Below the pieces are notes generated by a model, which saw nothing but the letters and a program-made list of their open reading frames with translations, did no database searches and had not been told where the DNA came from. Positions 3,363 to 7,467 of a stretch of DNA of 64,000 bases are shown piece after piece. The position numbers and the translations under genes are program-made. How positions within the stretch are numbered: position 1 is the stretch's first letter; each line of letters opens with the position of its first letter. Origin of the DNA: an uncultured Thermoplasmatales archaeon (GTDB lineage: Archaea; Thermoplasmatota; E2; DHVEG-1); assembly GCA_964612945.1 (NCBI GenBank), contig CAZTFR010000005.1, positions 1,716 through 65,715 on the forward strand, in the 5' to 3' direction.

Positions 3363-3797
3363 CTATAACATTCTTCTCTTAAATAGCTTACTCTTTGTAC
3401 CATTTATTTCATCTATAGTGATTTTTCCAAGTGTCTTCGTTGATTGTTGTGCAGAAATGAGGGTGTGGACTTGTTTGGTGTGTTCGTTTACCGTAAGAAC
3501 TCCGATGTGGTTGCCAATGAGGGTGTATTGGTGTTTTCGCAGCAGGCTGTAGATGTTCATGAGAGGAACAGCAAGGTAGACGTAGTCGGCGCCAAGTTGG
3601 TAGTTTTTGAGTTGGATGAGTGCTTTTTTCCAATCGCTGAGTTTGAGTTCTACTGCGATGACGTGGGTGTTGTTGAGAGCGATGAGATCAGCGCGGCAGT
3701 ATCCGATGCGTATTTCTGAAAATACCTGGTATCCTTGTTGTTGGAAGTAGTGAGTGACAGGCGGGCGGAGTTCATGTTCCTTTGAGAAGTGTTGCAT
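3363..3797 (-). CDS. PD-(D/E)xK nuclease, Holliday-junction resolvase Hjc-like
   Basis: EHEL...GYQVF...RADLIALNNTHVIAVELK aligns with the Hjc ERELxxLLxxxGFxVxR...DLVA...IEVK core (E, D, E-x-K). Length 144 aa. It overlaps the 3' end of the upstream polB-like gene by 26 nt. Confidence 0.6.
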   Translation of the reverse strand: MQHFSKEHELRPPVTHYFQQQGYQVFSEIRIGYCRADLIALNNTHVIAVELKLSDWKKALIQLKNYQLGADYVYLAVPLMNIYSLLRKHQYTLIGNHIGVLTVNEHTKQVHTLISAQQSTKTLGKITIDEINGTKSKLFKRRML

Positions 3798-6018
3798 AGG
3801 TTTGTTTCCTCATTTTTTTGGTGTTTAGATAGTGTTCGAATGTTTCTTTGGTGTATCCAAAGGGGGTCAGTAGGCTTTCTGCGCATTTAGCGAGGTGCCG
3901 CCGGTAGAAATCACGGTCAGGGGTGGTTGTTTCGGTGAGAAATTCTGCGATTTTAACTCGGTTTCGGGGGTCAGATGCGTGTTCGTCGGTGACCAGGTAG
4001 CGGACGGTTTGTCCGGGTTCAAAGTGGATGCCTGCATCGCGGAGTTGTATCAGTGCAGCTTTGGTAAGCGTGTTTGCTTTGTAGTCGGTGATGTCTCGGC
4101 TGATCTGGATGGTAAAGAGGAGGTCTTGTAGGGGGACTGTGCCTTCGAGAAGATGTTGGTAAAACGTGAGAGGTATTTTGAGAGCATGGGGGATCTGTTC
4201 GTAGAATTCGGTGGTAGTATGTGCCTGGGCAAGCGTGGTAAGCATTTCTTTCTGCATGACTTTAAGAAACGGTGGTGTGTTTTTTTGTCTGAGTTCGACA
4301 CCGCGGATGCGTAGTTTTCCTGCTGTGTTGAGGCCGTAGTAGCGGTTGAGAGCACCAACGTCGGTGTTTTTGCTGGGGAGAAAGACGATCCAGTGATACG
4401 TTGCTTCGATGTCGATACGTATGCCTGTGTGGGTGCTGATGTGTCTGGCGAGCTGCTCCGGGGTGAGACGGGGCGTATACGGTTGTATCCACAGGGAGTC
4501 GACGATGCCATGCAGGACGTAGTAACCGTGATGTTCGACGAGGTTGATGGTGGAAAGCAGGATGTCGCGGCTGTAGGCGGTGATGCTTTCATGGCATTCG
4601 ATGCGTCCGTAGCGGGCGTTGCGGTAGCCGGTGTAGCCGAAGCAGACGAGAAGAATCCATTTCCAGGCTTGTTGGAGTTCTTCGTATGTTTTGGTGTTGT
4701 ACTGGGGGTGTCGGGCGCGTGCTTTAAAGCAGAATCGTCTGTTGAGTATGGGCTCCAGGACTTGGGGGATGAGTCCTTTTTGTTTGGTGCAGATGGGATA
4801 CTTCAGTTGAGGAACTCGGTGTGTGGAGGTGGGGCAGCAGGAGCAGAGCAGGGTTTCCGGGCTGATATTGTGTTGGACCATGATGTGGGGGTAGAGTGAG
4901 GCGTAGTCGAGTTCGATTGCGCCTTCATGCAGGCCGATGTGTGGTTCGAGGATGAGGCCGCCGCGGTCGGCATTGAGAAGATCCCAGCTGGTTTTCCAGG
5001 ATTCCGGTTGATTTTTCTTCCAGGGGATGAGATAGTCCTGGCTCATAGCGGTGTTGACCTGTATCTGGCTGATCGCCGTGCCGGGTCCCAGGCGGGAGAG
5101 CATCTGCAGAGGGATGTTTGCACAGCGGGAGATGTCCAGAAGCCCTCGCAGACCGCTTTCGCCGTAGAGAAACGAGTTTTTCTGGTCAAGATGCACGCGT
5201 CCTTTGAGGGTATAGAAGGGTGGTCGGTAGACGATGTGGCCATAGCTGAAGTAGGATTTTCCCTGTTTTGCAGGTGCTTCATGAATGTGATCTCGTCCCA
5301 GGGTGAACTGGTGACCGATTGCGGCCTGTTTGGCACGATGGTAGAGGTAGGGCAGAAGTGTGCTGTCTCCGTCGTGGGTGTAGATGATATCTGGGTCTGT
5401 TGTTTGGAGGTGTTTCATCGCCGAAAGCAGGGTGTCTGCCTCGTTTTCTTCCTGTATTTCCATGTCATCAAGGATGAGAGCGCGGAGAGGGTCATGATGT
5501 GTTTTGATTCGTGCGGTGGTGTTTCGGGTGGCAGACAGATGCAGAGTTTTATAAGAAGGAAGAGGGTAGTCGATTGCCCACTGATCATCATGGAGATGAA
5601 AACGGCGGCCGTCCCAGCTGACCTGAGCGTTGCAGAAGAGGTGATGGTCGTTGAGGTATCTGGTGGGCAGGCGGATGTCAACGTTGTAGAGCTGGTAGTG
5701 ATGGTAGTTTCCCCAGGAGTCGATAAGGGCGGGGAGCCGGTGGAAGGCTTCCAGTGTTTTTGGGATGACCGTTAGGAAAAGCGTGGGTTTGGAGGATCCC
5801 AGTGTTGTTTTGTTGTAGGTAAAGCAGTAGTGTTTAATTTCAGGGAGCTGCCGAAGGGTGCGGGCAAGTGCGGTGAGTTTTTCATGGGATGCCTTGATGG
5901 AGACGCTGGGATGGTAGGGAGGGTGTATTTTATAGGGACGATGTCTTCCGGTAAGCCAGATCGTCATCGTGTTGTGGTGAAAGTCAGGGTAGACGTCCAG
6001 GATGTGTCCATGTATCAC
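3772..6018 (-). CDS. polB: Family B DNA polymerase homologue (archaeal PolB-like), highly divergent and probably catalytically impaired
   Basis: Collinear with archaeal PolB: an N-terminal ILDVxY start, ExoI D-x-E (LDDMEI), FTLGRD, motif A DYASLYPH, motif B [13 protein letters not shown], motif C HGIVDS. The ExoII Asp, ExoIII Asp, motif-B N/S and the first motif-C Asp are all substituted. Extreme H/T/P/Y/Q-rich composition. GTG start. Confidence 0.85.
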   Translation of the reverse strand: [748 protein letters not shown]

Positions 6019-6873: not shown

Positions 6874-6909
6874 AGGGGGTCGTCGAAAGTATCTGCAACA
6901 GATAAAAAA

Positions 6910-7467
6910 TCAGAGATGAGATTGCTTTTTCTTTTTTTTCGATTTCTTAGAAGATGCTTCTTCTGTACCGAGATGCAGTGTTCCGGTGGGAAGCGGTTTT
7001 CCTTTTTCTACATAGGATTCTGCTCGATCAGAAAGGGATTGTTGCAGCTTAGTAAGTTCTCGTTCGAGCCTTTCGACTTCTTTTGTTTTTCCTTTCTGTT
7101 TGTATTCCTGGATTTTAGCCTGGAGAATCTCAATTTCTTTTTGAATCGTTTTGATCGCCTGAGCGACCCATTCCTCGATGTTTTGCTCGGTGAGCATCTC
7201 TTTAAGGCGTTGTTCGAACTGTGATCGATCAGTATCTTTGATTTTTGTATACGAACGTCTTTTGTAGGGATCAACAGATGCTGGTGTATGCAGTGGAGAT
7301 AGAGCAGCAGTCGTGCTTCCTTCTTTTTTGATGATCTCATTAATGCCCATACGAATAACATCACTCAGCGTCATCCCGAGCCGGTCTGCTATTTGAGTGA
7401 TATGCTGATACATCCACGGGGAAAGACGGATATGCACCATCGACTGCTCAGCTGATTTGTATACCAT
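6910..7467 (-). CDS. Ribbon-helix-helix (CopG/Arc-like) DNA-binding protein with a long K/E-rich coiled-coil tail
   Basis: N-terminal VHIRLSPWMYQHITQIADRLGMTLSDVIRMGINEII is a typical RHH beta-strand plus two helices. The C-terminal ~110 aa are heptad-like and charged, ending in a poly-Lys stretch. Confidence 0.5.
   Translation of the reverse strand: MVYKSAEQSMVHIRLSPWMYQHITQIADRLGMTLSDVIRMGINEIIKKEGSTTAALSPLHTPASVDPYKRRSYTKIKDTDRSQFEQRLKEMLTEQNIEEWVAQAIKTIQKEIEILQAKIQEYKQKGKTKEVERLERELTKLQQSLSDRAESYVEKGKPLPTGTLHLGTEEASSKKSKKKKKQSHL

Follow-up and report, generated by a model that had tools for sequence, protein, structure and literature searches.

Gene content of the locus

We analysed a 64 kb stretch of DNA from an uncultured Thermoplasmatales archaeon (contig CAZTFR010000005.1), hereafter the window, focusing on a block of four minus-strand open reading frames (ORFs) at positions 3363 to 7467. 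Three of them encode, in the order of transcription, iRadA, a RadA paralogue with dead Walker motifs (6019..6873), PolB2, a family-B DNA polymerase (3772..6018), and a small PD-(D/E)xK nuclease (3363..3797), and in all likelihood they form a DNA-damage-tolerance operon of the PolB2 (Dpo2) type in this member of the Thermoplasmatota. The fourth, located upstream (6910..7467), encodes a ribbon-helix-helix (RHH)/coiled-coil protein and is an orphan neighbour that does not belong to the conserved module. The association of iRadA with PolB2 is already known, while the conserved nuclease and an arrangement lacking the small subunit gene PPB2 are modestly novel.

The ORFs, of 185 (RHH), 284 (iRadA), 748 (PolB2, GTG start) and 144 amino acids (nuclease, ATG start), are all present as listed in the initial annotation. 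The RHH protein probably starts at its residue M10, at position 7440. The iRadA ORF opens at a TTG, and since the alignment of homologues places the start at the ATG at 6798, the protein is likely 259 amino acids long. Its TAG stop (6021-6019) directly abuts the GTG of PolB2 at 6018, with GGTGGGAGGG immediately upstream of this junction, and the ATG of the nuclease lies within the 3' end of PolB2, producing an overlap of 26 nt; both junctions had been correctly described. Upstream of iRadA, a spacer of ~110 nt (6799..6909, minus strand) opens with a T6 tract directly after the RHH stop, followed by an A/T-rich TTTTTAA box ~65 nt before the iRadA ATG and a ribosome-binding-like GGGGG 12–17 nt before it. 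To judge by these motifs, the spacer probably holds a terminator, then the promoter and ribosome-binding site of the operon, and the RHH gene is probably its own transcription unit.

PolB2 and its iRadA partner

The polymerase is a full-length family-B enzyme (Pfam DNA_pol_B, 1.6e-33; exo1, 2.7e-8) that matches PolB3 enzymes of the PDB at about 1e-41 to 1e-30 (one at 5.9e-41), and its closest relatives, 53–61% identical, all come from metagenome-assembled genomes of Thermoplasmatota. Its motif A reads DYASLYP and the lysine of motif B (K453) is kept, next to a replacement of NS by LV. Aligned with P. abyssi PolB, motif C (HGIVDSL; I505-V506-D507 at 4498..4506, minus strand) carries Ile where the canonical DTD has its first Asp, and retains the second, metal-binding Asp. 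The exonuclease domain aligns only in part to PolB3 and to Pfam exo1: the catalytic Asp of ExoII has become Leu and ExoI is not alignable. None of the 81 PolB2 sequences aligned for motif counts deviates at the Asp of motif A, the Lys of motif B or the second Asp of motif C, and 80 of them follow I[VI]D in motif C (IVD in 49, IID in 31, the remaining one having FVD). Upstream of motif A, the dipeptide D351-R352, matched to the published D(K/R) motif of the family by its position relative to motif C and not by direct alignment to S. islandicus PolB2, occurs as DR in 76/81 and as DK in 5/81 sequences.

This enzyme looks polymerase-competent and exonuclease-dead. The initial annotation was right to call it a divergent family-B polymerase with substituted motifs, but its inactivation is not supported, since the two Asp and the Lys are invariant in all 81 sequences. 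Such an "inactivated replicative-polymerase paralogue" was the published view between 2008 and 2014 (PMC4104785) and is outdated, because the Dpo2 of Sulfolobus, which carries IID in motif C, is an active, damage-inducible translesion extender. In S. islandicus this PolB2 is induced by DNA damage and required for targeted mutagenesis (PMC7390963), and the enzyme is a robust polymerase without exonuclease activity that extends mismatched and lesion-opposed primer ends (PMC8764526).

The product of 6019..6873 is, as annotated, a paralogue of the RadA/RadB family with both Walker motifs destroyed. Its RecA fold is supported by a profile of five iRadA orthologues, which matched the ATPase core of P. 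furiosus RadA (E = 1.6e-8); Walker A bears LIK in place of GKT and the Asp of Walker B is replaced by Gly. The protein consists of the RadA core only, without the N-terminal helix-hairpin-helix domain, and is 44–46% identical to the iRadA proteins encoded next to PolB2 in relatives. Near its C-terminus (residues 264–270 of the 284-aa ORF; 6064..6084, minus strand), the sequence QKSLDDF resembles a PCNA-interacting (PIP) box, because the Q, the L and an aromatic residue three positions further (QxxLxx[FY]) are conserved in all five aligned orthologues. From this pattern match, QKSLDDF is predicted to be a PCNA tether. PCNA-binding motifs of PolB2 systems have been reported mainly in iRadA C-termini, for example QSHLEAFG in a Thermoplasmata entry (PMC11791011).

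Conservation of the operon and the missing PPB2 gene

We collected 86 related loci and searched them with our own profiles; locus counts are given out of 87. The succession iRadA-(PPB2)-PolB2 was recovered in 81/87 loci, distributed among Thermoplasmatota, Methanomassiliicoccales and Methanoperedens, with iRadA detected in 81/87 by profile search. The usual order in relatives is iRadA (~250 aa), PPB2 (84 aa), then PolB2, and one locus (L003) also displays SRAP and DUF72 neighbours, as in published PolB2 neighbourhoods, where SRAP, DUF72 and Orc1/Cdc6 are enriched (PMC11791011). Of the four genes for which synteny was in question, iRadA, PolB2 and the nuclease are syntenic in relatives, but no homologue of the RHH gene occurs in any of the 86 related loci.

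The initial annotation had taken this gene association for an undescribed module. It corresponds instead to a published operon: Makarova, Krupovic and Koonin (2014, PMC4104785) predicted operons in which an "inactivated" PolB2 is joined by RadA-family ATPases, likewise inactivated, and by arCOG07300, a small helical protein, and Timinskas et al. (2025, PMC11791011) renamed the two partners iRadA and PPB2 and modelled a PolB2-iRadA-PPB2x3 heteropentamer. The string covering motifs B to C in the window is near-identical to those of the Thermoplasmata PolB2 entries of operon group 1a in data file 1 of the latter study, ending in HGIVDSLWI where the published entries have HGIVDSLWV.

PPB2 (84 aa, DUF8156, PF26485) lies between iRadA and PolB2 in 77/87 loci and begins with MGRTVPTFR in relatives. 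In the window, the junction of the iRadA stop and the PolB2 start leaves no space for it, and neither tblastn with three PPB2 sequences nor a search with a hidden Markov model (HMM) built on three sequences matched anything in the 64 kb. An HMM of 77 sequences (--max, E<=50) and a scan for an MG[RK][TS] N-terminus likewise recovered no PPB2 in the window nor in three other loci, L005, L034 and L047. These four PPB2-less loci fall into the window with its sister L005 (neighbour-joining tree) and, independently, L034 with L047. In the latter two, iRadA also directly precedes PolB2, and the nuclease is absent as well.

The D-R dipeptide is kept by PolB2 in all four PPB2-less loci. Timinskas et al. 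noted this D(K/R) motif as well as an MGRT arm at the N-terminus of PPB2, and in their model the two are in contact (PMC11791011). Since PolB2 keeps the residues modelled as contacting the PPB2 arm, a PPB2 gene at another site of the genome is more likely than the loss of this subunit. PPB2 is regarded as a key element of the complex and modelled as essential (PMC11791011), and these two or more independent lineages provide a natural experiment on whether it is obligatory.

In the sister locus L005, a full-length RadA gene (HHH_5 and Rad51 domains, 314 aa; L005:8137-9081) lies ~0.9 kb downstream of the PolB2-nuclease pair. A 314-aa ORF at the same position in L049 (L049:2766-3710) gives a weak match to the iRadA profile.

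The nuclease downstream of PolB2

The AlphaFold model of the nuclease (mean predicted local distance difference test, pLDDT, 89.8) displays the alpha-beta-beta-beta-alpha-beta core of PD-(D/E)xK enzymes, extended by a C-terminal beta-hairpin and a basic helix. In a 31-sequence alignment (A2), residues E28, D37, E50, K52 and Q62 are conserved, and the columns of the catalytic core D37...E50-x-K52 (3642..3689, minus strand) are invariant. The PD-(D/E)xK part of its initial assignment as an Hjc-like resolvase is thus well founded, but the protein is not specifically Hjc-like: it has no match to Pfam Hjc, and in structure it resembles SPO1766, NucS and restriction-type folds more closely than Hjc. 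Its identification as Hjc was therefore rejected. The top structural match, 3dnx, is presumably a member of the Pfam MmcB-like family, and a PDB sequence search with the nuclease profile returned no match.

At the sequence level, 73 close homologues (44–60% identical) were found, none of which is named or bears a Pfam domain. Searched against 1.84 billion cluster representatives, the nuclease profile matched ~9 at E<=1e-30 and 3,077 at E<=1e-3, revealing a diffuse, mostly unannotated superfamily with marginal links to the sce7726, DUF2161 and MmcB-like families. The window nuclease itself stays below the cutoffs of both the MmcB-like family PF06319 (E=0.026, 14.7 bits against 22) and the sce7726 family NF033832 (39 bits against 70); among 70 broader relatives, one matches PF06319 (3e-5) and six match NF033832.

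The nuclease gene is found downstream of PolB2 in 36/87 loci, all from a Thermoplasmatales-like clade, and lies on the PolB2 strand in 35 of these 36 (in L023 it is on the opposite strand). The two genes usually overlap by 4–47 nt, the end of PolB2 covering the nuclease start, and this overlap is kept across at least 30 species-level genomes. In the window, the 26-nt overlap translationally couples the nuclease to PolB2, making it a clade-specific fourth gene of the operon. The two genes still adjoin in nine loci where iRadA-PPB2 lie 0.7–6 kb upstream, and in L087, where iRadA-PPB2 are not adjacent. The nine loci with this separation form one subclade (L020, L025, L030, L038, L041, L042, L044, L048 and L069). 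The nuclease and PolB2 diverge in parallel between pairs of loci (r=0.85; 0/2000 Mantel permutations), and so do iRadA and PolB2 (r=0.91).

Within the tight subfamily to which the nuclease belongs, every member whose context was examined adjoins PolB2 (the 36 loci and P0176). The two nearest outgroup nucleases (P0193 and P0205) are encoded directly downstream of genes for PF13482 (RNase_H_2) proteins, a family that we take to have a PolB-exonuclease-like fold. The two pairs are found at L088:1237-2385 and L090:4127-5543; the genes of the pair in L090 overlap by 23 nt, and a gene with LVIVD repeats adjoins both pairs. PF13482 also figures among the neighbour families in the table of Timinskas et al. 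(PMC11791011). The contexts of other broader relatives were varied and uninformative.

Neither of the PolB2 papers (PMC4104785, PMC11791011) mentions such a nuclease, nor did a further literature search find a mention of it, and it is not among the neighbour families in Table S1 of PMC11791011. In that survey, neighbours were identified by Pfam matches better than 1e-5 (PMC11791011), a level that no Pfam match of the nuclease reaches. It is apparently undescribed. Translationally coupled to PolB2 in dozens of species yet missed by neighbourhood surveys that depend on Pfam, it points to an overlooked component of the pathway.

One could object that the nuclease has no functional tie to PolB2: it might, for example, act alone as a restriction-like enzyme or a toxin, or have a housekeeping role, and simply have become fixed downstream of the polymerase in one lineage. 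The breadth of the superfamily (the 3,077 representatives at E<=1e-3), the variety of its contexts and the many PolB2 operons without a nuclease are consistent with this view. We nevertheless consider it unlikely, given the overlap of start and stop conserved in at least 30 species-level genomes, the linkage that persists when iRadA-PPB2 are separated from PolB2, the adjacency to PolB2 of all tight-subfamily members examined in context, and the two nearest outgroup members placed directly downstream of RNase_H_2 genes.

Nucleotide composition and horizontal transfer

The whole block had been described as GC-rich. This proved correct for iRadA (52% GC, 59% at third codon positions [GC3], coding-strand GC skew -0.43) and PolB2 (53% GC, GC3 62%, skew -0.34), but not for the nuclease (44% GC, GC3 51%, skew -0.30) and the RHH gene (43% GC, GC3 40%, skew -0.05), compared with 41.7% GC in the remainder of the window. 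Outside the block, the gene at 7669-9105 (plus strand), divergent from the RHH gene, deviates in the same way (50% GC, GC3 63%, skew -0.36). It encodes a metallo-beta-lactamase/beta-CASP-like protein of 478 aa with 6% His, and has no homologue in any related locus. The anomaly is therefore real, but neither block-wide nor block-confined. At the protein level, it appears as a His content of 6–8% and a depletion of the residues with G-rich codons (G, V, D and E).

Similar contrasts were observed in related loci. The sister locus L005 differs from its own flanks in GC content and C-skew as the window does. In nearly all loci the GC content of PolB2 exceeds that of the rest of the locus; the difference averages 4.2 points and is above 10 points in the window, L005 and L054. 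A strong C-skew recurs in L005, L032, L050, L028 and L049. Elsewhere in the window, other C-rich, G-poor genes (57608-58006, 42648-43256, 55356-56081 and 64-1791, all on the plus strand) have skews of -0.20 to -0.43, while most genes are near zero, and the genome has the appearance of a patchwork of genes with and without skew.

In the neighbour-joining tree, the window and L005 are placed near the GC-rich, C-skewed L032 and L028, and a transfer of the operon from a lineage of this kind is plausible. Such a transfer conflicts with gene content, because L032 and L028 have PPB2 and lack the nuclease. A shared amino-acid bias could also distort a distance tree.

These compositional contrasts bear on the possibility, raised by the initial annotation, that the block is a horizontally acquired island or the remnant of a mobile replicon (casposon, pipolin or plasmid), in which the polymerase would be a replicase and the nuclease would serve integration or restriction. 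The 10–11 GC points by which iRadA and PolB2 exceed the rest of the window, their strong C-skew, the similar contrast in L005, the GC excess of PolB2 over its flanks in most loci and the frequent transfer of PolB2 among archaea suggested by published trees (PMC11791011) would fit this scenario. We found, near the block, no integrase, Cas1, terminal or flanking (att) repeats, or tRNA target, and no matches to defence models (PADLOC) or to mobile-genetic-element types; 2.9 million viral contigs (IMG/VR) contain essentially no PolB2 or nuclease; the operon is found in diverse chromosomal settings and its genes diverge together in the manner of a cellular gene set; and the limits of the anomaly differ from those of the block, with the nuclease and RHH genes near background and the gene at 7669-9105 affected. 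A mobile or acquired island thus appears very unlikely. Long ago, the operon may plausibly have passed from one Thermoplasmatota lineage to another, which would not change its identity. The suggestion of a defence island was likewise dropped, as PADLOC gave no match and a PolB "HEase" match covers only the C-terminal part of the polymerase.

Proposed function of the operon

Several points weigh against a PolB2 damage-tolerance operon as we propose it, or against the place given to the nuclease within it. PPB2, the key element of the published complex, was found neither in the 64 kb of the window nor in the sister locus, so that the complex differs or the gene lies elsewhere. Deviations from the family consensus are about twice as frequent in the proteins of the window and L005 as in those of relatives, and some relaxation of constraint is therefore possible. 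The role of the nuclease is drawn from gene order only: co-divergence is expected for any two vertically inherited genes, the broader relatives are found in unrelated contexts, and the link to MmcB nucleases is weak at the sequence level (PF06319, E=0.026).

Slightly less probable still than a mobile island, and in our view highly improbable, is the view of the initial annotation, a purely structural or regulatory replication-recombination accessory complex in which the polymerase and the RadA paralogue would both be inactive and accompanied by a junction resolvase: the lost first Asp of motif C, the NS to LV change in motif B, the missing Asp of ExoII, the two destroyed Walker motifs and the published view of 2008–2014 (PMC4104785) speak for it, against which stand the invariance of both metal-binding Asp and of the motif B Lys in 81 sequences, the robust in vitro activity of the IID-type Dpo2 and its requirement for mutagenesis in vivo (PMC8764526, PMC7390963), and the structural proximity of the nuclease to SPO1766, NucS and restriction-type folds rather than to Hjc.

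Returning to a PolB2 damage-tolerance operon, the literature on the family suggests the following sequence of events. The operon would be induced after DNA damage; iRadA would bind PolB2 through a motif resembling that of Rad51 oligomerization, and its PIP-like C-terminal motif would dock the complex on PCNA at a stalled primer end, where PolB2 would extend mismatched or lesion-opposed primer termini. More tentatively, as suggested by gene order and by analogy with MmcB, the nuclease may incise or trim damaged or branched DNA so that PolB2 obtains a usable primer-template.

A bolder version, to which we give only a small probability, would have PPB2 truly dispensed with in the lineage of the window and L005, and the nuclease acting as a physical subunit of a PCNA-tethered "cut-and-extend" enzyme and as the fourth mutasome component across many Thermoplasmatota. 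Were this true, such an enzyme would directly link the cutting of damaged or branched DNA intermediates to extension that tolerates errors. Since its nearest outgroup relatives pair with stand-alone exonuclease-like (RNase_H_2) proteins, the nuclease may, in this version, recognize the decayed exonuclease domain of PolB2. Long written off as dead, PolB2 is now the main candidate for damage-induced mutagenesis in the archaea that have it. What is known of its holoenzyme composition comes from models alone, and both the nuclease and the PPB2-less loci bear on it.

Comparison with known systems

The window shares with the published PolB2 mutasome the I[VI]D in place of DxD, the decayed exonuclease site and the D(K/R) motif of its polymerase, as well as an iRadA encoded next to PolB2 on the same strand, with inactivated Walker motifs, a PIP-like C-terminus and no N-terminal domain. 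Its close relatives, moreover, display the iRadA-PPB2-PolB2 order of group 1a and SRAP/DUF72 neighbours. It differs from it by the absence of a PPB2 gene (DUF8156, MGRT arm) in its 64 kb, by the additional PD-(D/E)xK nuclease gene overlapping the PolB2 3' end, and by an operon that is strongly G-depleted and GC-enriched. With the Dpo2 of S. islandicus and S. solfataricus, the window polymerase has in common its PolB2 group, the substituted motif C (IID there, IVD here) and the lack of a proofreading site. The Sulfolobus enzymes are, unlike it, crenarchaeal, shorter and distant in sequence, and are encoded in an operon with PPB2 and without the nuclease; activity and damage induction were demonstrated for them and would, by extension, apply to the window PolB2.

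For the nuclease, the closest parallel in role is MmcB of Caulobacter, a small PD-(D/E)xK endonuclease tied to a damage-tolerance polymerase pathway, which acts with translesion polymerases (Lopes-Kulishev 2015, as summarized in PMC9578287). MmcB, in contrast, is bacterial, regulated by the SOS response and not encoded in an operon with a polymerase, so that the likeness is one of role and not of family membership. With archaeal Hjc, the nuclease shares the PD-(D/E)xK fold and the E...D...ExK arrangement, but it lacks a Pfam Hjc match and has the extra C-terminal beta-hairpin and basic helix. NucS/EndoMS possesses an additional N-terminal DNA-binding and dimerization domain, and no similarity to the window nuclease was found at the sequence level.

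At the level of the whole assembly, the Pol V mutasome of E. coli (UmuD'2C-RecA-ATP) similarly combines a translesion polymerase, a RecA-family protein and a small oligomeric subunit, an analogy drawn in PMC11791011. Unlike the PolB2 system, Pol V is a Y-family polymerase working with an active RecA and without a nuclease subunit, and the components of the two systems are evolutionarily unrelated.

Neighbouring genes

The 185-aa product of the gene upstream of the operon gave weak, repeated matches to RHH families (RelB/DinJ, 1.2e-4; BrnA; ORF56). Its low-confidence model (pLDDT 53) comprises a beta-alpha-alpha unit (beta 11–15, alpha 17–30, alpha 34–50) followed by long helices (78–154), in agreement with the RHH/coiled-coil product initially annotated. 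The protein could be a local regulator. We also considered it as a substitute for PPB2, which is unlikely: it has no homologue in related loci, including the PPB2-less L005, and a single one among 5.8 billion proteins, its gene has background composition, and a T-tract follows its stop.

The block is flanked by ordinary chromosomal genes, namely dnaJ, hsp20, an Lrp-like regulator, carAB, XPD and secreted peptidases. The Lrp/AsnC-type helix-turn-helix regulator gene (2812-3336, minus strand) starts 26 nt past the nuclease stop on the same strand, is preceded at 8 nt by GGGGAGG, and may be co-transcribed. It is not a conserved neighbour, with homologues 3–4 kb away in L011 and L017 only. Another DNA-repair gene, encoding an XPD/Rad3-type helicase (DEAD_2, HBB and Helicase_C_2 domains; 14812-16788, minus strand), lies ~7 kb from the operon.

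On the plus strand, the beta-CASP-like gene at 7669-9105 is adjoined by a gene at 9120-10196 for a 358-aa protein with an OB fold and an HD domain, which gave weak PADLOC matches of the Cas3-HD type (~2e-5); the two products are probably a pair of nucleases or phosphohydrolases. Further along (21421-39850, minus strand), five very large co-directional genes encode proteins of 805–1981 aa that combine C25 (gingipain-like) and S8 peptidases with PKD, NosD/beta-helix, laminin-G and BNR domains, and are probably secreted protein-degrading enzymes.

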